IMG/VR virus record: IMGVR_UViG_2617270944_000003
Span: 1 to 34,580 of that record
DNA length: 34,580 nucleotides
Reading direction: 5' to 3' (one strand)
Source: a virus
Lineage: Duplodnaviria; Heunggongvirae; Uroviricota; Caudoviricetes
The translations under genes and the position numbers were made by a program. This document shows positions 2,549 to 28,740 of this stretch, in pieces (the stretch's first letter is position 1; the number at the start of each line of letters is the position of its first letter). The notes below the pieces were generated by a model, which saw only the letters and a list, made by a program, of their open reading frames with translations, was not told the origin of the DNA and ran no database searches.

Positions 2549-5500
2549 GCGTCGTATCCCCCCTGATCGCTGTAGTTACTCCTGGCTTTTGCCTTCAGCC
2601 TGCGTTCACGTTCATCAAGCTGGCGTGCCACCTCCCGCGCAATATCCTGCGCACTTTGTCCTGGCTGCGTCTGAATGATGATCTGCGTCGGTGCCTCAAT
2701 CCGGTGAACGGGCGGCACAGTGGCTGCACGACTCACCATCGCTTCGTCGCCTTTCGCGGGAAGTGCCAAAGGATGCAACGGTGGAAGCTCTGCAGGCGCG
2801 GCAGCAACGCCCATCATTCCGGCAACAACGGCAGCCAGTGCAGCTGTATTTCTCCGGCTGGTCACATTTGCCGGGCCGTTAACAATTTCCGGCCCGTTTT
2901 CACCGACGATGCCAAACTGCCCGCGCGGGATATAGCCGCCGCTGTCATACATCCCCGCAAAGCCATATCCCCATGACGGAACCCCCCCCGATGGCATCAT
3001 CACTTTACCGTCTGCATTCACCGTCGCAGGTTGCTGACGCGTCACTCTTTCCGGCAGTTTCGCCTTTGCAGCCTCTTTACTGACAATGCCGAGTTTCTCC
3101 AGCAACCAGGAAACGCCGGATTTCAGGGAGTCCAGCGGATGCATGACCATATTCAGCCCTTCCGCCAGTGCCTCCCCGAATCGCCGCCCCATTGCCGCTG
3201 CACTCTGCAGTTCGGCAGAGGTCGACTTAACGGGCGTCAGCAGATCAGTAAACCAGCCCCACAGCGCCTGTACTTTGTCGCCAATCCACTGGAACACGGG
3301 CTTAAGCGCTTCGAATGCTGCACTGACGGGACCTGCCGCCGCTTTGAATCCTTCCACCACGCCACCAAGAAATGCGGTGATGGGTTGCCAGTATTTCCAG
3401 ACAACCAGCGCCACGCCCGCCAGTGCAGTAACCACAAGACCTATCGGACTGAGCAGAGCACCTAACAGACCAGATACGGCATACAGGGCAACGCGCAGCA
3501 TCGCCAGTGGACCAGATGCCAGTACTCGCAGCACCGTGCCTGCGGAGGCCAGTCCACCGCGCAGTACCGCCAGAGGATTCATAAACATCACAGCAACAGC
3601 ACGTAAACCGGATAATCCAGACCGCAAAAGTGCAACCGGCGCACCTGCTACAGTTTTCAGGACATTTCCCGTCAGTGATGCCGTGCGGCGCAAAGACGAC
3701 AACGGCGCAGTAAGTAAACCTGCGGCGTTGCCCGATGAAGCAAGCCCGCGTCGCAGCAGTGCAAGTGGTGCGCCAGCCAACCAGGACAACGCGCTGCTGG
3801 TTCGCGTTACTGCTGCCGTAACGGAAGGTAACGTTTTGATACCCAGCACAGAGAATCCCAGACGGATGACTGCCAGCGGTCCCAGCACAGCAGCCAACAC
3901 CACAGCCAGGGTGCCGAGGCCCACAGTAACAGCAGCCACAACCGCTGCTACTTTCATCAGTGTGCCCGTCAGTTCAGGGTTAGCTTCCACCCAGCGACGC
4001 AACGCCCCCGTGATGCTTTTCACCGTGTACAGAATATCCATCAGCGGCTGGCGCAGCGTTTCGCCCAGGCTGCTGAAGGTGTTCTGCGCTCCGGTTTTGA
4101 CCAGCAACCACTGCGCAGAAAGTGAGTCCTTGTTAATGTCGGATTCTTTCTGCATCGAACCGAGCGCATCATTGCCAGCTGTCAGTTTTAGCTGGCGCTG
4201 CAGTTCCGGCAGGTTGTTTGCCAGTTTCGCCGCATCATCGCCAAACTCTTTACCAAACAACATGGTCATGGCAGACAGGCGCTTATCCTGCGGCAGTGCG
4301 TTCACCTTCTCCAGTACGCGCTGGATAGTTCCCATCGCATCCTTCGTCATCTGCTTTTCAATCACTTCAGGATTGAGTTTCAGCAGATTCATTCCTTCAA
4401 AGAAACTCTTGCTTTGCATGGTGGCAATGGACAATTCACGCACCATCGCGTTGGCAGCACTGGCAGCGACCTCCGGCGCAGCACCCAGTGTCAGGAAGGT
4501 GGAACCCAGCGCCGCCGCTTTACGATAATCCAGACGATCAGCCACACCGCCCAGGCGTTGCATGACATCAATGATGTCTGCCCCTTTCGACATAGCGTTA
4601 TCATCCAGATAGTTCAGCGCATCACCGAGCTGTTCAATATTGCGGGTTGGTATTTTGTAGAGCTGGGCGATTTTCCCCAGACTTTCTGACAGTTCATCCG
4701 CTGGCAGCTCAAAGGCTGTTGCCGCCTTTGCTGCCGTACTGGCGAAGGCCAGCAGGTCACGTTTCTGGTCCTCCCAGCTGTCGTCAGGGTTTGCCACATT
4801 CATGCGCGCACCACCTTCAACCAGTGCGGCGAAGTCCACAGCACCGTTTTCCATTGGCAGCTGTTCACTGGCAGCTTTGATGGCATCCTGCATTTCGTAA
4901 AAACGCGCAGTGCGGTTGCCATTATCGTCACGCAGACCATTGACCTGCTTTGCCACACCTTTCATGGCATCTTCCATGCTGGTATAGCTTTTTACCGCCG
5001 CCATCACTGGCGCGCCCATTGCCAGCCCTGCAGCCGTGGTGGTGGCTCCGGCTCCTGCGATGCGATCGCGCACTTCAAGCCGTCTTGAGTATTGTTCTCT
5101 GGCAGCGTTCATCCGTGCCTGTTGTTCACCCAGACGTTTAAGTGCTTTTTGCTGGCCCTCCAGTGCCTGACGAGTTTCTTCGGCATTTTTCTTAAGTTCT
5201 CGCTGGGCACTACTGAGTTGTCTGGTATCAATCCCTGATTCTTTAAGTGCCTGACGTTGTCTCTGGACCGCCCCCAACAAGCCGTTATAGGTCTGCTGAA
5301 GTTCCTGTACTCGTGTTTTGGCCTGACTGAATAACTTTGCCTGCGCGGCGGTTGGCCTGTTAGTGGCAGCAAATTGTGTGGCGAGTTTTGCCGCCTCTTC
5401 GCGGGCTGCGTTCAGGTTGTTGGCTGTTATGGCTAGTTGCGAGCGCGTCTTGCGAAATTCATCAATTCTGCCAGCCTGCTTATTCAGTTCTTTGAGGCTG

Positions 5501-5622
5501 TTTCGGGTATTCTGAATTGCGCCAGCCAGCTCTTTCGAACTGGCCTGTGCAGCACGGAATGGGCGGGTGAGTTTGTCAACCGCATTAAGAATGACCTGCA
5601 GGCGCAGGTTATTATCACTCAT
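2545..5622 (-). CDS. T: Tail tape measure protein
   Basis: 1025-aa ORF with coiled-coil N-terminal half and Ala/Gly/Leu-rich transmembrane-like middle, typical of P2 gpT; positioned between E and U. Confidence 0.85.
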   Translation of the reverse strand: MSDNNLRLQVILNAVDKLTRPFRAAQASSKELAGAIQNTRNSLKELNKQAGRIDEFRKTRSQLAITANNLNAAREEAAKLATQFAATNRPTAAQAKLFSQAKTRVQELQQTYNGLLGAVQRQRQALKESGIDTRQLSSAQRELKKNAEETRQALEGQQKALKRLGEQQARMNAAREQYSRRLEVRDRIAGAGATTTAAGLAMGAPVMAAVKSYTSMEDAMKGVAKQVNGLRDDNGNRTARFYEMQDAIKAASEQLPMENGAVDFAALVEGGARMNVANPDDSWEDQKRDLLAFASTAAKAATAFELPADELSESLGKIAQLYKIPTRNIEQLGDALNYLDDNAMSKGADIIDVMQRLGGVADRLDYRKAAALGSTFLTLGAAPEVAASAANAMVRELSIATMQSKSFFEGMNLLKLNPEVIEKQMTKDAMGTIQRVLEKVNALPQDKRLSAMTMLFGKEFGDDAAKLANNLPELQRQLKLTAGNDALGSMQKESDINKDSLSAQWLLVKTGAQNTFSSLGETLRQPLMDILYTVKSITGALRRWVEANPELTGTLMKVAAVVAAVTVGLGTLAVVLAAVLGPLAVIRLGFSVLGIKTLPSVTAAVTRTSSALSWLAGAPLALLRRGLASSGNAAGLLTAPLSSLRRTASLTGNVLKTVAGAPVALLRSGLSGLRAVAVMFMNPLAVLRGGLASAGTVLRVLASGPLAMLRVALYAVSGLLGALLSPIGLVVTALAGVALVVWKYWQPITAFLGGVVEGFKAAAGPVSAAFEALKPVFQWIGDKVQALWGWFTDLLTPVKSTSAELQSAAAMGRRFGEALAEGLNMVMHPLDSLKSGVSWLLEKLGIVSKEAAKAKLPERVTRQQPATVNADGKVMMPSGGVPSWGYGFAGMYDSGGYIPRGQFGIVGENGPEIVNGPANVTSRRNTAALAAVVAGMMGVAAAPAELPPLHPLALPAKGDEAMVSRAATVPPVHRIEAPTQIIIQTQPGQSAQDIAREVARQLDERERRLKAKARSNYSDQGGYDA

Positions 5623-6051
5623 CGTTGGCCCCGCTTCTCTGAATCGCTTTATACCGCCATTCCAGCACTTCGGTCAGCGGCATAACGTCAGTAACGGATG
5701 GCGGCCAGTGAAAGATGGTGGCGATATCAGCCACCAGATCGTCAACCGTCAGGCTGTCGGTAAACCGGCAAGCACCGACTTCTTCAACAAAAAAGTGACA
5801 ACCTCAACCGACATGGCAGTGAGATCTGCCGGGTCCATCTCTGCAATTTCCTGTGCAGTCAGTGCCGGACTGGAGATGCGGGGGATCACGGTCATCATCG
5901 CGTTCACATCCATATCCATAATGGCCTGCAGGCGTGTACCGCGCAGCGCACCGGACTGCGGTTTACGCAGCACAATTTCGGTGATTTCTGTTTTACCGCG
6001 CTTGATGGGGGTATCCAGTTGAATAGTCTTTTCAGTCTGCTTATCGCTCAT
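5615..6051 (-). CDS. E': E+E' tail assembly chaperone fusion made by -1 programmed frameshift
   Basis: Manual translation of the -1 frame from the slippery site gives a ~57-codon extension that stops at 5617-5615, overlapping the T start codon (5622-5620), mirroring P2 E/E+E'. Confidence 0.6.
5749..6051 (-). CDS. E: Tail assembly chaperone E
   Basis: 100-aa ORF upstream of T; contains a T-TTT-TTG slippery heptamer near its 3' end. Confidence 0.8.
   Translation of the reverse strand: MSDKQTEKTIQLDTPIKRGKTEITEIVLRKPQSGALRGTRLQAIMDMDVNAMMTVIPRISSPALTAQEIAEMDPADLTAMSVEVVTFLLKKSVLAGLPTA
5788..5794 (-). promoter_or_regulatory. -1 programmed ribosomal frameshift slippery heptamer T-TTT-TTG in gene E
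   Basis: Minus-strand TTTTTTG read in the E frame as ACT TTT TTG TTG; same heptamer as the P2 E frameshift site. Confidence 0.6.
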
Positions 6052-18495: not shown

Positions 18496-18542
18496 AAACC
18501 GCAGGCGGGGAAAGCCTTCATTCAAGGCTGTAGGTTTGTGCC

Positions 18543-20309
18543 ATGAACACCACACTGACACCCGCAGATCTCGATCCCCGTCGGCAGGCCATGCTGCTGT
18601 ACTTTCAGGGATACCGCGTAGCCCGCATTGCTGAAATGCTGGGCGAGAAAGTTGCAACCGTTCACAGCTGGAAAAAACGCGACAAGTGGGGTGACTATGG
18701 GCCGCTGGATCAGATGCAGCTCACCACCGCCGCACGCTACTGCCAGCTCATTATGAAGGAGCACAAAGAAGGGAAAGATTTCAAAGAGATTGACCTGCTG
18801 GCGCGCCAGTCGGAGCGCCATGCGCGGATCGGCAAGTTTAACAATGGCGGCAACGAAGCCGACTTAAACCCTAACGTCGCCAACCGCAACAAAGGCCCGC
18901 GCCGTCAGCCGGAAAAGAACGTTTTCACCGATGAACAGATTGAGAAGCTGAAAGAAATCTTCCATTCCTCCATGTTCAACTACCAGCGCCACTGGTGGGA
19001 AGCCGGAAAAACCAACCGCATCCGCAACCTGCTGAAGTCACGCCAGATCGGCGCGACCTTCTATTTTGCCCGTGAAGCCCTGATTGACGCCCTGCTGACC
19101 GGGCGTAACCAGATTTTCCTTTCCGCCAGCAAGGCTCAGGCCCACGTCTTTAAGCAGTACATCATCGACTTCGCCAAAGAAGTGGAGGTGGAGCTGAAAG
19201 GCGATCCGATGGTGCTTCCTAACGGGGCCACGCTGTACTTCCTCGGCACCAATGCCCGCACGGCCCAGAGTTACCACGGCAACCTGTATCTGGATGAATA
19301 TTTCTGGATACCGAAATTCCAGGAGCTGCGCAAAGTGGCTTCCGGTATGGCTATTCACAAAAAATGGCGACAAACCTATTTTTCCACGCCATCCAGCCTG
19401 ACACACAGTGCTTATCCGTTCTGGTCCGGTGCGCTGTTCAACCGAGGGCGCAACAAAGCCGATAAGGTGGACATCGACCTGTCCCACAGCAATCTGGCCC
19501 CCGGCCTGCTGTGCGCAGACGGGCAGTACCGCCAGATAGTCACTGTGGAAGATGCGGTGCGCGGCGGCTGTAACCTATTCGACCTCGACCAGTTGCGCAT
19601 GGAGTACAGCCCGGACGAATACCAGAACCTGCTGATGTGTGAGTTCGTGGACGATCTCGCGTCCGTGTTCCCGCTCAGCGAGCTGCAGGCGTGCATGGTG
19701 GACAGTTGGGAAGTCTGGACCGACTTTCATGCACTGGCCCTGCGCCCGTTTGGCTGGCGCGAAGTGTGGATCGGATATGACCCGGCGAAAGGTACGCAGA
19801 ACGGCGACAGCGCCGGATGCGTGGTGGTGGCTCCGCCAGCCGTGCCGGGCGGTAAGTTCCGCATTCTTGAGCGTCACCAGTGGCGCGGAATGGACTTCCG
19901 CGCCCAGGCTGACGCCATCAAAAAACTGACCGAACAGTACAACGTGACCTATATCGGTATCGACTCAACCGGCGTTGGTCACGGGGTTTACGAGAACGTG
20001 AAAGCGTTTTTTCCTGCCGTCCGGGAGTTTGTCTACAGCCCCAACGTTAAAAACGCCCTGGTACTCAAGGCCTACGACATTATCAGCCACCGCCGTCTGG
20101 AGTTTGACGCCGGACACACCGACATAGCGCAGTCCTTTATGGCAATCCGTCGCGCCACCACCGCCAGTGGCAACCGCCCGACCTATGAAGCCAGCCGCAG
20201 CGAAGAAGCCAGCCACGCCGATCTGGCCTGGGCAACGATGCACGCACTGTTTAACGAACCGCTGCAGGGCGAATCCGCCAATACCAGCAATATTGTGGAG
20301 ATTTTTTGA
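18543..20309 (+). CDS. P: Terminase ATPase (large) subunit P
   Basis: 588-aa ORF divergent from O; stop overlaps the Q start (TGATG). Confidence 0.85.
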   Translation: MNTTLTPADLDPRRQAMLLYFQGYRVARIAEMLGEKVATVHSWKKRDKWGDYGPLDQMQLTTAARYCQLIMKEHKEGKDFKEIDLLARQSERHARIGKFNNGGNEADLNPNVANRNKGPRRQPEKNVFTDEQIEKLKEIFHSSMFNYQRHWWEAGKTNRIRNLLKSRQIGATFYFAREALIDALLTGRNQIFLSASKAQAHVFKQYIIDFAKEVEVELKGDPMVLPNGATLYFLGTNARTAQSYHGNLYLDEYFWIPKFQELRKVASGMAIHKKWRQTYFSTPSSLTHSAYPFWSGALFNRGRNKADKVDIDLSHSNLAPGLLCADGQYRQIVTVEDAVRGGCNLFDLDQLRMEYSPDEYQNLLMCEFVDDLASVFPLSELQACMVDSWEVWTDFHALALRPFGWREVWIGYDPAKGTQNGDSAGCVVVAPPAVPGGKFRILERHQWRGMDFRAQADAIKKLTEQYNVTYIGIDSTGVGHGVYENVKAFFPAVREFVYSPNVKNALVLKAYDIISHRRLEFDAGHTDIAQSFMAIRRATTASGNRPTYEASRSEEASHADLAWATMHALFNEPLQGESANTSNIVEIF

Positions 20310-21346
20310 TGGGAAAGAGTAAGAAGAACCGCGCTGCGGCGACGAAACAGATCCAGCTTAAAAGTCAAACTACAGCCGAAGCATTCAGCTTCGGCGATCC
20401 CGTTCCTGTTCTGGACCGCCGCGAACTGCTGGACTATGTGGAATGCGTACAGATGGACCGTTGGTATGAGCCACCAGTGAGTTTCGACGGCCTGGCGCGA
20501 ACCTTCCGCGCCGCCGTACACCACAGCTCACCGATTGCAGTAAAGTGCAACATTCTGACCAGCACCTATATCCCTCACCCGTTGCTCAGCCAGCAGGCTT
20601 TTTCACGTTTTGTGCAGGACTATCTGGTATTTGGTAACGCCTACCTGGAGAAACGCACGAACCGCTTCGGTGAAATTATCGCCCTTGAGCCTGCTCTGGC
20701 AAAATACACCCGACGCGGGTTAGACCTGGATACCTACTGGTTTGTGCAATACGGTATGACAACCCAGCCGTATCAGTTCACGAAAGGCAGCATCTTTCAT
20801 CTGATGGAACCGGACATCAACCAGGAGATCTACGGCCTGCCTGGCTATCTTTCTGCTATTCCATCCGCTCTGCTCAACGAGTCCGCCACGCTGTTCCGCC
20901 GTAAGTATTACATCAATGGCAGCCATGCAGGCTTCATCATGTACATGACCGATGCCGCGCAGAATCAGGAGGATGTGAACAACCTCCGCAACGCGATGAA
21001 AAGCGCCAAAGGTCCAGGCAACTTCCGCAACCTGTTTATGTACTCACCTAACGGCAAAAAAGACGGGCTTCAGATCATCCCATTGTCAGAAGTCGCGGCG
21101 AAGGATGAATTTCTTAACATCAAGAACGTGAGTCGGGATGACATGATGGCAGCGCACCGCGTGCCGCCACAAATGATGGGGATTATGCCGAATAATGTTG
21201 GGGGGTTTGGGGATGTGGAAAAGGCAAGCCGTGTATTCGTCCGAAATGAGCTAATGCCACTACAAAAGCGATTACAGGAGATGAATGATTGGCTTGGCAA
21301 GGAGGCGATACAGTTTAATACCTACTCGCTAGATATAGTCCCATAA
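20309..21346 (+). CDS. Q: Portal (capsid vertex) protein Q
   Basis: 345-aa ORF downstream of P, P2 gpQ-like size and position. Confidence 0.85.
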   Translation: MGKSKKNRAAATKQIQLKSQTTAEAFSFGDPVPVLDRRELLDYVECVQMDRWYEPPVSFDGLARTFRAAVHHSSPIAVKCNILTSTYIPHPLLSQQAFSRFVQDYLVFGNAYLEKRTNRFGEIIALEPALAKYTRRGLDLDTYWFVQYGMTTQPYQFTKGSIFHLMEPDINQEIYGLPGYLSAIPSALLNESATLFRRKYYINGSHAGFIMYMTDAAQNQEDVNNLRNAMKSAKGPGNFRNLFMYSPNGKKDGLQIIPLSEVAAKDEFLNIKNVSRDDMMAAHRVPPQMMGIMPNNVGGFGDVEKASRVFVRNELMPLQKRLQEMNDWLGKEAIQFNTYSLDIVP

Positions 21347-21350
21347 TAAG

Positions 21351-21374
21351 AAAAGCCACCGTTTGGTGGCTTTT
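21351..21374. terminator. Bidirectional intrinsic terminator between Q and the convergent HIRAN gene
   Basis: Perfect 10-bp stem aaaagccacc / ggtggctttt with loop gttt; A-run and T-run on opposite sides. Confidence 0.75.
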
Positions 21375-21380
21375 CTTCAT

Positions 21381-22121
21381 TTACTCAATAGGTTCAAACT
21401 CATCCTGAGGAATCAGCGTCGATTGACAGGCTTGGCTTAGTACTCCTGATAATTTACATAATAACCGATAGTTATGAGGAGCATCATCGCTAATCTTTTC
21501 GACCGTTAAAGTGATTGATTTTGGATCATCCAATAACATCTTCTTGATATCATTACTTAAATACCTAGGGCAGTAACCAACGATTTCAGCTGGTTTATCT
21601 GCACGAACGACAACAGCATCCCCATCGTATTCATTTTGAAGATCCAAGCAAAGACGCAAAATTTGCCCCGGTTTCAATTCAGATACACGAGCATTAGCTA
21701 AGCTATTTAAGTAACCAAGTCCATGTAAGAAGAAAAAATGCTCAAAGTTACCATCAGAATCAACATCAATTTTTTTGAAAATCTGCAGCTGATCAGTGCT
21801 TCGTAAGCCTCCCGAGCGAGCAAGAATATCGATAGGATTTACCTTATCTTCTTCAAATCCAAGCCATTTAATGAAACTCGGATACTCTGGACGTCTCGGT
21901 GATAAAAGGCGATTTTTAAAAAGAGGAAACAATTCTTCCGAAACATAAGTTTCACGAACATCACTCATGCCGCTAAACTTTGTAAATTTAGTAGATTTAA
22001 GAGCACCTTTGGTATACCTGAAAACATACCCCGATTTGCGCTCTTGCAAGTTACCAACAACATGCCAGTCTCTGGTATCTGGTGCCTGCCATGCGACGTA
22101 AACGGAGTTTGTATTAGTCAT
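21381..22121 (-). CDS. HIRAN-domain protein (246 aa), second gene of a kinase-HIRAN operon; candidate defence/toxin-system component
   Basis: C-terminal signature ILRLCLDLQNEYDGDAVVV...EIVGYCPRYLSNDIKKMLLDD fits the HIRAN consensus (remembered pattern); ATG overlaps the kinase stop (ATGA); AT-rich. Confidence 0.55.
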   Translation of the reverse strand: MTNTNSVYVAWQAPDTRDWHVVGNLQERKSGYVFRYTKGALKSTKFTKFSGMSDVRETYVSEELFPLFKNRLLSPRRPEYPSFIKWLGFEEDKVNPIDILARSGGLRSTDQLQIFKKIDVDSDGNFEHFFFLHGLGYLNSLANARVSELKPGQILRLCLDLQNEYDGDAVVVRADKPAEIVGYCPRYLSNDIKKMLLDDPKSITLTVEKISDDAPHNYRLLCKLSGVLSQACQSTLIPQDEFEPIE

Positions 22122-23032
22122 TCTAGTAACCTTCTGCGATTTTCCATTACCATTAACGTTGCAAATCTACGTGCACTGTCGGATATACACGATGAAGGCA
22201 CTTGGTTAAACACATCTGTAATGGAATCTTCTGTTAAAACGCTCAACTTACCTAACCAATGGTCGCGAGCGGCAACTCTCCCTTCAACTGCATGTTGAAA
22301 TGCTTCAACGGTCAGCAAGGGCTTTTTATCAGTTTTTGCTTTGAATAGCTCAGAGCGAGCTTTTCTTACAAAACATGGGATTTGTCGATTTTTATCTTTA
22401 GTATTAAGCCGTTCGTTACGCTCATCATCTAACATCTCCCTTCCTAAACTAGCGGCATGATCGTATGTTGGACACAAAAACTGCTCACCAGTTTCATTGT
22501 TAAGCATGATCGCCCAATTTTCATGATGGCGATCTTGATTACTCACAAGTGCATCGAGCATCAAATATCCACAAAATACATCTGCTGCATTTAGCCCGGT
22601 TAGATCATATACACTCGGAGGAGGCTTGATAGATTCCCTATCCAAACAACCCAATACCCTTGTGACAGTGTGTTCTCTGACCCTTACCGGCTTTTCCCCG
22701 GCTTGTAAAGGCCCAGGATAATCGAATGTCGAACTGTGAAGCACTTCATTTCCCATTACCATCCGGAAACCAGATGGAATGATATTCTGAGTCACCACAC
22801 CGAATCGACCATTGTATCGCGCCAAATCATAGCTAGCATGTGGAATGTTAAGCAAATGACATAACTCAGCAGCACACTTTTCAGACCAATGCTCGCCAGT
22901 ACCTGGCCTAGAGTACTTAAACAACTGCAAATTTACAGTGTCATCGGAGAAATAGAACCAAAACTTCTCTTTGGTTCCTAACTGTTCAAGATCGTTAGCT
23001 ACGGGGCTAAGCTCTACCAATTGGTATGGCAT
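22118..23032 (-). CDS. HipA-like serine/threonine kinase (304 aa, core kinase domain only); candidate defence/toxin effector
   Basis: Motifs GTKEKF (HipA phosphate-binding loop-like) and SNQDRHHENWA (catalytic loop D-x-H-x-x-N); AGGGA RBS; AT-rich relative to the phage core. Confidence 0.6.
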   Translation of the reverse strand: MPYQLVELSPVANDLEQLGTKEKFWFYFSDDTVNLQLFKYSRPGTGEHWSEKCAAELCHLLNIPHASYDLARYNGRFGVVTQNIIPSGFRMVMGNEVLHSSTFDYPGPLQAGEKPVRVREHTVTRVLGCLDRESIKPPPSVYDLTGLNAADVFCGYLMLDALVSNQDRHHENWAIMLNNETGEQFLCPTYDHAASLGREMLDDERNERLNTKDKNRQIPCFVRKARSELFKAKTDKKPLLTVEAFQHAVEGRVAARDHWLGKLSVLTEDSITDVFNQVPSSCISDSARRFATLMVMENRRRLLE

Positions 23033-23184
23033 CTGACATCCCTGTTTAGCGGATTATGAATAAGTTAGGTTCCATTTTATCCAAACATTGTCAAATACTC
23101 TAAGATTTATTAGATGATAGAGCGATACTGTATGCATGTCCAGCAATCAAATCAATATATAACTCTTATATGACTTAGCGCGCG

Positions 23185-23205
23185 CTCGTATCCCCGCCAC
23201 GCCTG
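23185..23205 (-). other. Candidate cos (cohesive end) site
   Basis: Minus-strand ggcgtggcgggga matches the first 13 nt of the 186-type 19-nt cohesive end as remembered; sits in a 600-bp noncoding gap at the P2 cos position relative to Q. Confidence 0.3.
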
Positions 23206-23640
23206 CCCGCTTTGTGTAGTGGTTTTCATGCAGTTGCATAACATAAGCAAAAGCCCGTCAGAACTGGCAGGCTTCGACATAAACGATCCACTAGCGATCA
23301 TTCATTTTCATGCAGCATAGGTATGCACCAGAGTTACTTTGAGGTGCAATGGATGATACCTACAGATTTGCTACCCAAGGTCATGCTGAAAATCTATCGC
23401 ATCTGTATGATGCCGCGGACATAGCGAAATCTCCCCATGCAGTGACAAACTACTTGAGTAAATACTGTTGTGTTACCACAAGAAGAGATTTCAAAAGGAA
23501 AACAACGCTATGTTATCTAGTACATATAGCTATAAATGTCTTAATTTTAGCCAATACATTGAATTAAATGAAAAAATACTTTAGTTTGTATACTATTTTT
23601 TAGCGTTCAAGATTATGCAATTTTTTGGAGAGAACTATAA

Positions 23641-24609
23641 GTGGGATCTTTCAGTTTACTTGCATCACGACCAATACCAACTGTGCTAGAAACAAGACAG
23701 TTTAACTCAGTTAACGGCAGTGACGCCGAATCTTATGCAATGAGTCAATTCATTCTTGCTTGTAGAGGAGAGGGGCACTGGGGTTCCAGGGAAGACGACA
23801 ATTCAAAAATAGATTTAATATTATCCTTCGAACATCCATGGGCATCAAAAGAAAGAATGCTTATATTGTCGCAAGTTAAATCAGGGGCAACTTATGGTCA
23901 TTTATTAGAGAAAGGTTTTGTATTAAATTCGGCCGCAAAAAAAGCAGCCAAAAGGACAACTCACCATATATGTGTCGTTTGGGTTGACAGAACTAATCGT
24001 AAAGCATTTTGGGCCTATATACATCCAAACACTACCCTTAAAAACCAAACTTATGGAGAATATCACTTAATCACTCCGGCTACACGGTTTGACCTGGCTC
24101 GCTGTATGTCCATGGTACGTGCAGGTGAAACTGGAGCAAAAGGAATCCATGTAAGAAGAAGAAACTCACTACTTAATAATCGGCGAGCGTTTGTTAAAAA
24201 ACGTTATTCTGAACAGAAAGAAATCACATCTCCGGTGCTTGGGAAAATCGAGCTTACACGGCTGGGTTGGAGACATATGTTCAGAAAGAGTCGCAGAGAA
24301 GAAAACAAAGCAACGAGTTTGGACATTATTCCCTACTTGAGAAATTTACTAGTTCGGTTTCCTTCAACTCATGCTATTACTTCTTCTGATGTCCGTGATT
24401 ACGGCTGTTTTACTTACCAAAGAAGAGAGCACTTATTGAAATTTAATAATCTAGAGGTTACTTATGCCAAAGGAGAGGGAAAAAATAAAGTATGTGCTTA
24501 TATTCGTGTTATAGAAGAAATAAGGTATCCAAAAGATTGGACTAACGCGGTAATGCTATCACAGCAGGTTGAAAGACGAGTGGTTTTGAAGTCAGCATAT
24601 TATAAATAA
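23641..24609 (+). CDS. Hypothetical protein (322 aa), possible PD-(D/E)xK nuclease-like (DUF4365-like) N-terminal domain; candidate single-gene defence cargo
   Basis: GTG start after GGAGAG RBS (alternative ATG at 23740); N-terminal IDLILSFEH...LSQVKSG resembles a restriction-endonuclease-like motif; very AT-rich, basic C-terminal half. Confidence 0.45.
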   Translation: MGSFSLLASRPIPTVLETRQFNSVNGSDAESYAMSQFILACRGEGHWGSREDDNSKIDLILSFEHPWASKERMLILSQVKSGATYGHLLEKGFVLNSAAKKAAKRTTHHICVVWVDRTNRKAFWAYIHPNTTLKNQTYGEYHLITPATRFDLARCMSMVRAGETGAKGIHVRRRNSLLNNRRAFVKKRYSEQKEITSPVLGKIELTRLGWRHMFRKSRREENKATSLDIIPYLRNLLVRFPSTHAITSSDVRDYGCFTYQRREHLLKFNNLEVTYAKGEGKNKVCAYIRVIEEIRYPKDWTNAVMLSQQVERRVVLKSAYYK

Positions 24610-25194
24610 CGAGGCCGTTGGGAAGCCAGCACTTGCGCCCATGCTCTGCCAGATTCCGGTTTCGAATCGGTTCTCTGGCAATAATGCGGATAGCGTACTG
24701 GGCATCAGCCTTAGCTTTTGCACTCAACCCAACGACCAAGTGGTGAAGCATACTAGTAAAGAAACTTTAATTCTAGATGTTTTGAAGCAATTCTCACATC
24801 AAGTATTAATTTTTCTAAAGCAATGACCTAATGGTATGTCAGGCTTCAACGAAAATTGGCAACCAATCTAGATAACTGTACCTTTTCAAAAAACTGGTGC
24901 GTATCGTTAGTCTCCTTTCGCCGTTGTTCCAGTCTGGTCGCTTCAATAAAAAGCAAGGCCGCCGTACAGCAAAACTATATAATCATAGCTTAAGCCAAAT
25001 CACTCATCTAAGGTGTGGCTCCATTAGTAGTTTGAGCGCTAACAGCCCCTCTGGCGATAAAACTACTCAATACCTGGCACGAAACAAAATCTGGAAGTTA
25101 CTATTTTTTTGCCCATGACTAACGCCTCGCATGGCTCGTTGATCAACCTTGCTAGCGTCAGAATCAAGTCCTAACGCCAGCAACGTTCCTAAGC

Positions 25195-25383
25195 CTAACC
25201 GGGGAGATCCATTGAACGGTTGTACTCATGAGTACGGATTTTCGCCATTAACTCATCGGTCAGCTCCGAAACCCACTGGATAGCAAGCCGCTTCTCTTCA
25301 TCATCGCACTCACTAGCCGCTACAAGCTTAAGAAAAAAATCAATGCGCTGGAGCTTCAAAGACTCCAAAAAATAGTCCTGCAT
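25195..25383 (-). CDS. Small protein (62 aa) under a LexA box; candidate SOS-inducible antirepressor (Tum-like role)
   Basis: ATG at 25383 preceded by AGGAGG; near-consensus LexA box about 45 bp upstream. Confidence 0.45.
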   Translation of the reverse strand: MQDYFLESLKLQRIDFFLKLVAASECDDEEKRLAIQWVSELTDELMAKIRTHEYNRSMDLPG

Positions 25384-25424
25384 CTTTCCTCCTATGACAC
25401 CACACGCAATACTGTATGTATAAC

Positions 25425-25444
25425 CACTGTTTATATTTACAGTA
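25425..25444 (-). promoter_or_regulatory. LexA (SOS) box CTGT-N8-ACAG
   Basis: cactgtttatatttacagta fits the CTGT-N8-ACAG LexA consensus with AT-rich spacer; a partial second site (tactgtatgtataa) lies next to it. Confidence 0.6.
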
Positions 25445-25537
25445 TATAATAATCTTACTGATGTAAAACGTTTTTTTTACGCTTATCAGCCTGATATGCC
25501 TGGTATTATTAAGAGCACGAATTGTTAACCAGCGTAA

Positions 25538-27910
25538 TTAATACAGGTTCCGCCACTTATCATCTTCCTGCAAACGCTGGTTCCGATAGAAGATACGCAG
25601 GCCTGCTCCTGACGGAATACTGCCGCCGCGAAGGAGTAAATCGACCTCTTTCTCGCTGCCATCAAATCCTCTGGATTTCAGTTCATAGACAAGCTGCTGT
25701 CGTTGATGGTCTGTAATTCGCTGTTTGTAGTCTCTACGCCGTTTCGGTTTCACCAGACGTAACCTTGCAGCCAATTCCCGGCGCTTCTTTTTGTTCATAC
25801 TGTGCAGGTAATCGTGCAACACCTTGTCATCCATGCGGGTAATGTCCGTTCTGGGGTCCCCATCAGCTGATTTATCTTTCTCCTGTTGGTTCAAATTTTC
25901 AGCAAGGGGACAGTTATTGCCACGAGTCCAAGGGGCGCAAGCGCCCTGGTCGGCTGCCGCCTCCTGAACGTCAACGGCCTTACGAACCATTTTCCACTTC
26001 ACTGCATGAGTGCAGATCTTGCCCTCTGCAATGGGTGACCAGATGCCATAAATACGAATGCCGTGATCGCCATAGGCGGTCGGCTCTTCGTTGATTTCAT
26101 AAGCGGTTCTGATCAGGTGATATTTGCGGGGAACCAGTACGCCGCCCTGCTTCATGATGTAGGTGGCAAAACAACCAGCATCAGCAGCAGCCAGGATTGC
26201 ATCAAGGCGCGGGTTATCCAGTACCGGCGCACCTGCTTTTTTGTCCCCCTGTTGCCTTGCCGCCTGACCAGCCAGCAATCGCAGTTCACGGTAAGCCTGA
26301 CGCCCCGGAATGCCAAAGAAGCGGAATTGCTGAACACGATGCAGAGACGCCCAGGCATTAACGTATTCAGCATTATCACGCAGGGATTTCCCCGTTTCCT
26401 TGCTGATCTCGCCAGCCAGACCACGCCCGTCAATGTTCTTACTGATGTATTTCGCGATGTAGCTTGTTGGCGTACCTTTGCGCGGGTTAATCAACTCAGA
26501 CTTAAAGCGCGGCCCAGTGTTATTGCCCAGTTCCTCGCGGTCTTCACGGATGGCAAACTTACGCAGTAATGCAGTGATGGCGCGGCGGTCTTTTTTGCGC
26601 ATAAAACACAACAGGTGCCAGTGAACTGTACCGTCATGATGCGGCTCAGCCACCCGCACGCCATACCACCGCAATCCGGCTTTGTGCATCGCCTTACGAA
26701 ATGCAGCAAACATGCCGACCAGATAATCACTGCTTTGTCTTACCGTCGCATTTGTCCAAGTTGGGTTGGGCCTGCCATTATTTAGCGTGGAATGGAAACG
26801 TGACGGACAGGTGATGGTGTAGAAAACGGCGCAGTCACCGCGCATTTCCGCGATAAGCTCCAGGCCTTTAACACAGGCCATCATCTCATTGCGGCGATGC
26901 GCAGGGTTGCTGCTGCTGGCGTTTACCACATCCTCCATGTCCAGCGTGTCGCCGTCTTCGTTCACCAGTTCATGAGAACGAAAAAACTCCAGCGACTTAC
27001 GGCGCTGCTCACGTTTATGCATCACGGCTTCATAGCTGACATAGGGAGATGCTTTTTTGCTGACCAGGCAGACAGCACGCAACTGCTCTTCCCGCCATTC
27101 GCAACGCATCTTCCATAATTTCCGGTACCACCAGTCAGCGCACAACATACGCGCCAGCGAACCCGGAATGAGTTCATAGGGCACGGGTTTACGGCGGTTT
27201 CTTTTCCGGCGGAGTTGCTCAAACGCAGGCGGGATGACATCCAGACGCAGGGTTTCCGCTGCCACCTTTTCCCATGTCTTGCGGATTTCTTCTGGCTTAA
27301 CGTCATCGGTGACATACAAATCGCCACAAGCTGCATCAAGGCACATGCTCATATGCGCAGCTACCAGGGTGGACAGGCGTTTCACCTGATCCTGACTCAT
27401 TTCAGGCAGGATCAGCAGGCCGTCCAGCCCTTCATGGCTTGCCATAAAGCGAAAAGAAGTGGATAGCTGACAGTCGCGTACATGCTCCAGCCGTTCCAGA
27501 CATGGCTTAATCGTCTCACGCAAATAGCGGGAATAAGCCTTTGGCCTGCCCAGGCTGCTGAAGTATTCAATACGTTGCATCAGTGGCTTGCTGATATGGG
27601 AAGGCTGGGCATTAACGTCCGCCAGAATGACCATATCTGGATTAAAACGCTGCTGCTCATGCGCCAGCTTTGCCCGACTAATGAGCTTATCCTGCTCCAT
27701 TTCGCGCTGGACAGGATCACGGGATTCATTAAAGAAATAACGCTCCCAGACCTGATCACTCAGTGCCTCGCGGCGCAGCTGTTCCTGCTCGTTATCGGCA
27801 GCGTACAGAGCGATCAGGTTTGAAAGCGCAGAAACTGAAGATTGCTCTTCCGTCTCTACGTAAGGATTGATTGCTTTTTTCTCAGCATTCCAGGAATAGC
27901 TGTAGTTCAT
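25538..27910 (-). CDS. A: Replication initiation endonuclease A (rolling-circle type)
   Basis: ~790-aa ORF at the P2 gene A position; first ATG at 27910 overlaps the upstream stop (TAATG); the longer TTG-initiated form (27961) was not adopted. Confidence 0.8.
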
Positions 27911-28740
27911 TACGCAATCTCCAGTTCGAGCTGTGAAGGCTGCAAACCATTCGACAGCCAATCAGAAACTGAAGGTGGGCGAACAGCTTCAATTGCACCT
28001 TTTAAAATTGCGCAACGGTTTTTCAGAATGACAGCTTTCAGCTCCTTTTCCGTCAGATTGCGCGAATACTCAGCCTCCTGAATAGCCCGCGTCAGCTCAG
28101 GATATTTGCTATTAAATTTGGGGACATTGCAGGCAAGATTTGTACTGTCGGCAGTCGCCAGTGGGTAATTTCCCAACACACGACCGTCAAGCATGCGCAA
28201 ACCATGAACAGCTGTTTTGAAATTGTGTCGGCAATAAATTGCTTCAAAAGCGTCCTGCATACGACGATGCCAGTGCGCAGTTCTGATAGCCGCATATTCA
28301 CCAGACGATCCAAAGCAGACACGAGGCCATTCACGACATAGCTCGATAAGCCGATCGATTGACTCGTGCAGATGCCAGACGGGAGTTGCCTTCCCGTAGA
28401 ACATTTTCGGAACTTCGTTTATCAGGGCATCATTGTCACGTTCACCTCCGTCCACAACATCAGGAATGACAAAAAAAGCGACCTTAGGATGGTGGTAATA
28501 GTTCAGGAGCCATTTATAAAAATCACTCCAGTTAATTTTTAGCCCACGCACCCATGCAGAAAATGCGCCGTTATCAATGCCGACGACCTGAGCGTGCTGA
28601 ATGGACGCCGCAATCTGATCTGGTCGTACATAGGAGACGAAAGCGCCAGCTCCGCTCACCGCAATACGATGAACGTCGCCAGCACTTCCCCAGACAGGCG
28701 TCCCATGGAAATGATGAATTCCGTGGTGCATTTCTTTCAC
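27910..28740 (-). CDS. Conserved hypothetical protein (about 275 aa), translationally coupled between Dam and A; function unknown (very tentatively TGT/DpdA-like)
   Basis: Start GTG 28740 or ATG 28731; [10 protein letters not shown] weakly recalls the DSGGF motif of tRNA-guanine transglycosylase-family proteins. Confidence 0.55.

Follow-up and report, generated by a model that had tools for sequence, protein, structure and literature searches.

A hipIN kinase-HIRAN module carried in the Q-cos-A hotspot of an Escherichia coli P2/Fels-2-like prophage

The variable hotspot between portal gene Q, the cos site, and replication gene A of a P2/Fels-2-like prophage (Peduoviridae) of Escherichia coli carries, as accessory cargo, a two-gene operon that corresponds to hipIN, a module already known as a bioinformatic entity. 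We analyzed a 34,580-nucleotide (nt) stretch of E. coli chromosome that contains this prophage (IMG/VR record IMGVR_UViG_2617270944_000003), which is referred to here as the window; all coordinates are positions in it. An earlier note, made from the letters of the window alone, had described two minus-strand genes that pair a HipA-like kinase with a HIRAN-domain protein. Both open reading frames (ORFs) were confirmed, and their layout is as follows.

22118..23032, minus strand: hipI, a 304-amino-acid (aa) ORF for a HipA-homologous Ser/Thr kinase, core domain only; putative toxin.
21381..22121, minus strand: hipN, a 246-aa ORF with two domains, HipS-like and HIRAN; putative antitoxin/sensor.
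22118..22121, minus strand: ATGA overlap, in which the hipI stop codon TGA (22118-22120) shares bases with the hipN start codon ATG.

The hipIN module was defined by Gerdes, Baerentsen, and Brodersen (mBio, 2021; PMC8262856) as a short HipI kinase together with HipN, a protein in which a HipS-like domain is combined with a HIRAN domain. Their data set comprised 14 modules and does not mention the P2 prophage hotspot. In PADLOC-DB v2.0.0, the window pair is the candidate system PDC-M03, with adjacent genes and nearly end-to-end matches: HipI aligned to PDC-M03A with residues 2 to 304 on profile positions 4 to 300 of 305 (E = 2.1e-122), and HipN aligned to PDC-M03B with residues 1 to 244 on profile positions 1 to 241 of 245 (E = 3.4e-93). 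The PADLOC run suggested in the earlier note therefore recovered both proteins. The pair is in print down to its accessions. In E. coli strain SCU-115, which matches the window at 100% DNA identity, the two proteins are WP_001146828 and WP_000185757, and both are listed with their neighbor WP_021534477 in Table S5 (E. coli P2 hotspots) of Rousset et al. 2022, where the kinase is labeled "hypothetical" (PMC9122126). Table S6 and Fig. 7 of the same study contain a "HIRAN-kinase" system (HipA_C plus Couple_hipA/HIRAN) from a prophage hotspot of Vibrio crassostreae, which was outside the set of systems tested there (PMC9122126). HipI is 35% identical to the kinase of that system over its full length (E = 5e-58). 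As late as 2025, the HipI/HIRAN operon was still termed predicted (PMC11706625), and hipIN is not mentioned in Payne et al. 2024 or in a 2026 preprint on P2/P4 hotspots. The earlier note had not recognized the pairing as a named system. Because the pair matches a named system exactly, the outcome by which the note itself proposed to judge the claim, its novelty does not stand.

HipI contains the motifs GTKEKF and SNQDRHHENWA from which a HipA-family core kinase had been proposed, and these are invariant in 60 to 62 of 62 orthologs from many phyla. The Gly-rich loop (G19-T20-K21-E-K23-F-W25) lies close to the N terminus; its residues G19, K21, K23, and W25 are invariant (62/62), and position 20 is Ser or Thr in all 62 orthologs. 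Within the catalytic motif (N165-Q-D167-R-H169-H-E-N172-W), N165, D167, H169, and N172 did not vary among the 60 aligned orthologs, nor did D191 of the Mg-binding D191-H-A; K39 is also invariant. The Pfam family HipA_C matched HipI itself weakly (E = 3.6e-4; 20.7 bits, below the cutoff of 30.5) but matched all 26 HipI family members scanned (best E = 7.7e-13). The Pfam check proposed in the earlier note thus succeeded for the HIRAN domain of the partner (see below) and, on the kinase side, for the relatives but not for HipI. HipI also corresponds to phrog_8728 (E = 2e-184).

Sequence-only searches of solved structures yielded only marginal matches (for HipI, CtkA at E = 0.43; for HipN, nothing meaningful, with the HipN profile reaching lp_0118 of L. 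plantarum at E = 0.42), and structure prediction was therefore needed. When the kinase part of an AlphaFold2 (AF2) model of HipI was compared with known structures by Foldseek, the best match was Helicobacter pylori CtkA (template modeling [TM] score of 0.79 to 0.80; E = 9e-11), followed by HipA of E. coli and Shewanella (E = 1e-9) and then by HipT of HipBST (E = 1e-5). HipI consists of the core kinase only and lacks the ~100-residue N-subdomain of HipA; its 120 closest relatives are all about 300 to 340 aa long or shorter. By its conserved motifs and predicted structure, HipI is a Ser/Thr kinase of the HipA/CtkA fold with intact catalytic motifs.

In 15 listed E. coli genomes, HipI was annotated as "hypothetical protein" in 12 and as "HipA domain-containing protein" in 3. 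RefSeq mostly uses the former name because HipI scores below the Pfam HipA_C threshold (20.7 versus 30.5 bits). NCBIfam has no family for either HipI or HipN. For HipI, the annotation gap is systematic.

The C-terminal half of HipN (residues ~112 to 235) matched Pfam HIRAN (PF08797; E = 1.1e-13; 51.3 bits versus a cutoff of 24.7), in agreement with the domain assigned to it in the earlier note. Residues ~1 to 105 form a HipS-like domain with the invariant motif ELFPLFKNR (residues 63 to 71), and Pfam Couple_hipA, the N-terminal domain of HipA, matched residues 20 to 72 weakly (E = 0.018). The protein corresponds to phrog_8026 (E = 2e-136). An AF2 model was built from a 38-sequence alignment (predicted local distance difference test [pLDDT], 89.3; predicted TM score [pTM], 0.84). 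[quoted passage not shown] Structure prediction, another check raised in the earlier note, was thus informative for both proteins, giving a CtkA/HipA/HipT fold for the kinase and HIRAN plus HipS for the partner. The note had also stated that neither a HipB-like helix-turn-helix (HTH) antitoxin nor a HipS-like partner is present. The first part stands, as the ORF list and a Pfam scan showed no ORF with an HTH in the operon or on either flank; the second does not, since the N-terminal domain of HipN is HipS-like. In the predicted structure, HipN is a HipS-like domain fused to HIRAN and would supply in trans the subdomain that is missing from HipI.

HipN has the canonical HIRAN motif (N163-E-Y165-D166), which aligns with "NQYD" of lp_0118. 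In HLTF, the N-x-Y-D motif of HIRAN contacts the 3' end of DNA. N163 is invariant across 62 HipN homologs, D166 is kept in 17 of them, and Thr occupies the Asp position in 42. The canonical N-x-Y-D is found in the gammaproteobacterial branch, including the hipIN studied here, and N-P-A-T is found in most other phyla.

The gene overlap can be read directly in the sequence as ...ctagaATGActaat, and judging from these 4 nt, hipI and hipN are translationally coupled, as had been suggested. To follow the pair across taxa, we scanned one genome per species and found 80 HipN loci in many phyla (Gammaproteobacteria, Burkholderiales, Campylobacterota, Cyanobacteria, Verrucomicrobiota, Planctomycetota, Nitrospira, Chloroflexi, Acidobacteria, Gemmatimonadota, Myxococcota, and others). 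A kinase homolog lies immediately upstream of the HipN homolog and on the same strand in 68 of these 80 loci, and the genes overlap by 4 nt in 38 of the 61 cleanly called orthologous pairs. By gene order and overlap, the hipI-hipN operon is conserved beyond chance. The pair is also present in temperate, ~14-kb Vinavirales (tectivirus-like) elements of Vibrio cyclitrophicus, where it adjoins an integrase gene and has the 4-nt overlap. In Vibrio phage 10N.222.46.E12_PE001, it occupies positions 3935 to 5649 of locus L082 and is annotated as hypothetical proteins only. A megablast search of the operon against deposited phage genomes gave no match; only tblastn detected distant copies, namely, those of the Vibrio elements. 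The module occurs in nonphage chromosomal contexts as well. PHROGs contains both the HipI and the HipN families, with function unknown there.

At approximately nine loci, a HipN-like gene occurs but no kinase gene. Several such genes are located inside type I or type ISP restriction-modification loci. The direct predecessor of the HipN-like gene is a type I R subunit in locus L068, a type I S subunit in L020, a type ISP enzyme plus an HD protein in L027, and a SWIM-SNF2 helicase in L024; in L075, the gene follows DUF7002 and an adenylosuccinate-synthetase-like protein. In Thorsellia (L062), HipN is 58% identical to that of the window and the kinase gene is absent. The HipS-like/HIRAN unit may therefore partner with effectors that are not kinases.

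The remaining features of the locus are given below.

21348..21377, both strands: bidirectional intrinsic terminator (13-bp stem, 4-nt loop) separating portal gene Q from the convergent hipN.
23114..23142, minus strand: candidate sigma-70 promoter of hipIN, TGGACA-17-TATCAT, from a consensus scan only.
21305..25204: variable hotspot segment of ~3.9 kb, in which similarity to Peduoviridae is interrupted (megablast against phages).
23177..23231: cos site, a P2-type packaging site, by homology to the annotated cos of Escherichia phage Cartapus.
18543-20309: terminase gene, upstream of the portal gene.
20306-21346: portal gene Q, convergent with hipN.
25538-27961: replication gene A, on the far side of the hotspot from Q.

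The intergenic gap between Q and hipN is 34 nt long (portal stop at 21346, hipN stop at 21381-21383). It contains a hairpin with a perfect 13-bp stem that begins 1 nt past the portal gene and has folding energies of -21.0 and -20.4 kcal/mol on the two strands (z = -6.2 and -8.1; 0 of 200 shuffles as stable). Since A and T runs border the hairpin on both flanks, it is a credible bidirectional terminator, and the strong terminator described in the earlier note was borne out. A simple consensus terminator scan did not pick up this hairpin; folding showed it. An Rfam match to BSnc120 over 21317-21395 (32 bits versus a gathering score of 114) coincides with this hairpin and was dismissed as a chance match. 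The candidate hipIN promoter agrees with the consensus at 10 of 12 positions and is situated ~80 nt upstream of the hipI ATG and ~35 nt from cos. We found no inverted-repeat operator upstream of hipI.

The GC content is 0.36 to 0.44 across positions 21000 to 25500 and 0.53 to 0.61 on the flanks, and the pair is indeed AT-rich and placed between Q and the cos/replication region, as had been noted. Similarity to sequenced Peduoviridae ends within the 3' end of Q, near 21305, and restarts near 25204. The locus is the Q-cos-A hotspot of a P2/Fels-2-like prophage, and hipIN is accessory cargo there. The hotspot between gpA and gpQ, beside cos, was defined by Rousset et al. 2022 and is known to carry old, tin, and many validated systems (PMC9122126). 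From the Q side, the order in the window is Q, terminator, hipN, hipI, candidate promoter, cos, a second cargo gene, orf62, and A, so that cos divides the cargo, with hipIN on the Q side and the second gene on the A side. An identical 1.9-kb segment was present in 21 of 5426 complete E. coli genomes, in every case beside a "phage portal protein." In strain SCU-115, the Q side consists of tail and capsid genes, the terminase ATPase, the portal, the HIRAN-domain protein, and a "hypothetical protein" (the kinase); beyond the kinase follow an opposite-strand hypothetical gene, a 62-aa hypothetical gene, replication endonuclease A, CII, CI, and the integrase.

The cos site is identical at 54 of 55 nt to the Cartapus feature "putative cos site, homologous to the cos of P2 phage," which is located at the end of that record. 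The Q-cos slot of Cartapus holds a different cargo, a DUF4145 gene. The cos core of the window, GGCGTGGCGGGGATACGAG on the minus strand, has ~5 differences from the P2 cos 19-mer. Used as a locator, that 19-mer gave no match at <=3 mismatches, and cos was located via the homology to Cartapus; an 11-mer match at position 18504 was at chance level and was rejected as cos. With ~150 bp between it and cos, hipIN comes to lie at the far left of the packaged genome.

The second cargo gene (23641-24609, plus strand; RefSeq start at 23740) belongs to a conserved single-gene family. Its homologs are mostly 319 to 326 aa long, which makes the GTG start (322 aa) likelier than the start called in RefSeq (289 aa). 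DUF4365, a nuclease-like domain, and LPD3 are present in some of its relatives; the gene itself had no match in PADLOC, PHROGs, or NCBIfam. It may be a stand-alone defense gene. The 62-aa orf62 (25195-25383, minus strand) lies just upstream of gene A, at the edge of the conserved backbone that restarts near 25204. It corresponds to phrog_698 (E = 1e-36), of unknown function in PHROGs, and to WP_021534477, the protein given alongside the hipIN pair in Table S5 of Rousset et al.

How might the module act? We hold with moderate confidence, and by analogy with characterized Hip systems, that the prophage-borne hipIN is a kinase toxin-antitoxin-like module that would provide HIRAN-triggered abortive infection against other phages. 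The earlier note had speculated about a DNA-end sensor coupled to a growth-arresting kinase. This model is plausible, and the same hypothesis was already proposed with the definition of hipIN, namely, that HIRAN domains recognize the DNA ends of invading phages and that the resulting kinase activation leads to abortive infection (PMC8262856). In uninfected cells, HipN's HipS-like domain would hold HipI inactive; we assign it this role because HipS neutralizes the HipT kinase in HipBST. Upon infection by another phage, HIRAN would meet free DNA 3' ends, for which injected linear genomes, replication or packaging intermediates, and degraded host DNA are candidate sources. Binding of a DNA end would then lift the inhibition of HipI allosterically and not by antitoxin degradation, given that single-chain HipL proteins (kinase, HipS-like, and HIRAN) exist (PMC8262856). 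The freed HipI would phosphorylate an essential component of translation. Aminoacyl-tRNA synthetases are the targets of the characterized relatives of HipI. Growth arrest would abort the infection and protect the lysogen population together with the prophage. T20 in the Gly-rich loop is a probable site of autophosphorylation, which would reset or limit HipI as in HipA and HipT.

Several genomic observations are consistent with a role of hipIN in abortive infection: its residence in a defense hotspot, its rarity (21/5426), its integrase neighbors in Vibrio, and the kinase-less HipN genes in restriction-modification loci. Four points weigh against it. First, the conservation pattern of the HIRAN motif suggests that recognition of the DNA 3'-OH is not uniformly conserved across the HipN family. 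Second, a fused model of the HipS-like domain, a linker, and the kinase (paired alignment), built as a test of HipA-like docking, reached a pTM of 0.71 and superposed on full-length HipA only loosely (TM of 0.54 to 0.60; root mean square deviation [rmsd] of 7 to 9 Å), so that docking of the HipS-like domain on the kinase stays putative. Third, the only HipA-containing construct of Rousset et al., "Exonuclease + HipA" (pFR108), a different P2 hotspot system, gave no defense in their panel and appears in Table S2B among the additional tested systems and not in the table of validated ones (PMC9122126); hotspot residence and a HipA kinase are therefore no guarantee of a phenotype. Fourth, our literature search, which did not cover Brenes and Laub 2025, found no experimental work on any hipIN module, be it on toxicity, neutralization, DNA binding, the target, or phage resistance, beyond bioinformatic accounts.

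A bolder form of the idea, that hipIN is an immune switch in which a HipS-like allosteric lock on the kinase is opened when HIRAN binds free 3' ends of phage DNA, is one that we put forward tentatively and regard as rather doubtful. If true, it would be the first DNA-end-sensing kinase defense, and a hipIN module located ~150 bp from cos might need to discriminate the ends of its own phage or be silenced by them.

The hotspot context and the nature of HIRAN also bear on the view, unlikely in our estimate, that hipIN is a plain addiction or stabilization module. In that case, HipI would be a toxin and HipN a labile antitoxin, the pair would act solely in postsegregational killing or in retention of the prophage or its cargo, without phage sensing, and HIRAN would replace HipB as a generic DNA-binding or autoregulatory part. 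The two genes have the architecture of a toxin-antitoxin pair, a class to which hipBA and hipBST belong as classic modules (PMC8262856), and with no HTH regulator encoded, another DNA-binding element could take over autoregulation. However, HIRAN domains bind DNA ends and not specific operators, and upstream of hipI there is no inverted-repeat operator. Moreover, a single-chain HipL cannot act by differential decay of an antitoxin, and the pair is a rare occupant (21/5426 genomes) of a rapidly exchanging defense hotspot and does not belong to the fixed backbone of the phage.

The loose superposition on HipA is relevant again for a scenario that we consider quite unlikely, in which HipN is an indispensable subunit that makes the HipA fold complete and directs the kinase: HIRAN would recruit the complex to DNA ends, and HipI would phosphorylate a phage or DNA-associated protein, so that replication or packaging is disturbed without abortive infection. 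An rmsd of 7 to 9 Å hardly favors such a complex, even if the fused HipS-like and kinase model aligns with full-length HipA over ~500 columns and the equivalent N-subdomain is integral to active full-length HipA. The strict 4-nt coupling suggests stoichiometric coassembly, and the gene is ~150 bp from cos, where P2-type DNA ends arise. Against this, HipS is an antitoxin in HipBST, the only characterized split system (PMC8262856, PMC10627512). Finally, it is highly improbable that hipIN serves the prophage's own cycle, e.g., by sensing DNA cleaved at its own cos, or its replication intermediates, and modulating host translation at induction or establishment: the module is immediately beside cos at the left end of the packaged genome and HIRAN recognizes 3' ends, but most P2-like phages lack hipIN, the corresponding slot of Cartapus has DUF4145, E. 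coli P2 hotspots hold many cargos, and hipIN is also found in nonphage chromosomal contexts and unrelated elements.

As a discovery, the locus adds little, as the module, its architecture, its status as a candidate defense system, and its presence in the P2 hotspot are all in print. Should the DNA-end-sensing model hold, HipA persistence kinases would be linked to antiviral immunity via a eukaryote-like HIRAN sensor. The E. coli allele of the window is a good one for testing because its HIRAN motif is the canonical one, which most distant homologs have lost.

One known system to compare with the pair is HipAD/DS-6, an anti-phage system that was validated by the Laub laboratory and whose defense is kinase dependent (PMC13092281). 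Both combine a HipA-family kinase with a non-HipB partner and are encoded by prophages or islands. The HipAD partner (DUF3037/DUF1829) is, however, unrelated to HipN, with neither a HIRAN nor a HipS-like domain, and the two kinases are set side by side here by description. The earlier note was right that the pair is neither a canonical hipBA nor a hipBST module. Canonical hipBA has an upstream HipB (HTH/Xre) and a HipA of ~440 aa with N-subdomain-1, whereas the pair and its flanks have neither, the kinase being 304 aa long. Like hipBST of E. coli O127, the pair carries the kinase core and a HipS-type domain of ~100 aa on separate polypeptides. The hipBST module, in contrast, consists of three genes (HipB, a stand-alone HipS of ~100 aa, and HipT), and the module here has two, with the kinase first, no hipB, and the HipS-like domain fused to HIRAN. 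Structurally, the window kinase also resembles CtkA more than it does HipT, whose target is TrpS.

HipL shares its three domains and their N-to-C order with hipIN but is one polypeptide, whereas the pair consists of two ORFs parted by the TGA stop at 22118-22120 within the ATGA overlap. The "HIRAN-kinase" example of V. crassostreae has the same HipA_C and Couple_hipA/HIRAN architecture (PMC9122126). PDC-M03 shows no difference from the window pair and is itself a candidate, not a validated system. [quoted passage not shown] There is no architectural difference between them, and it is by architecture that we assign the window pair to hipIN.

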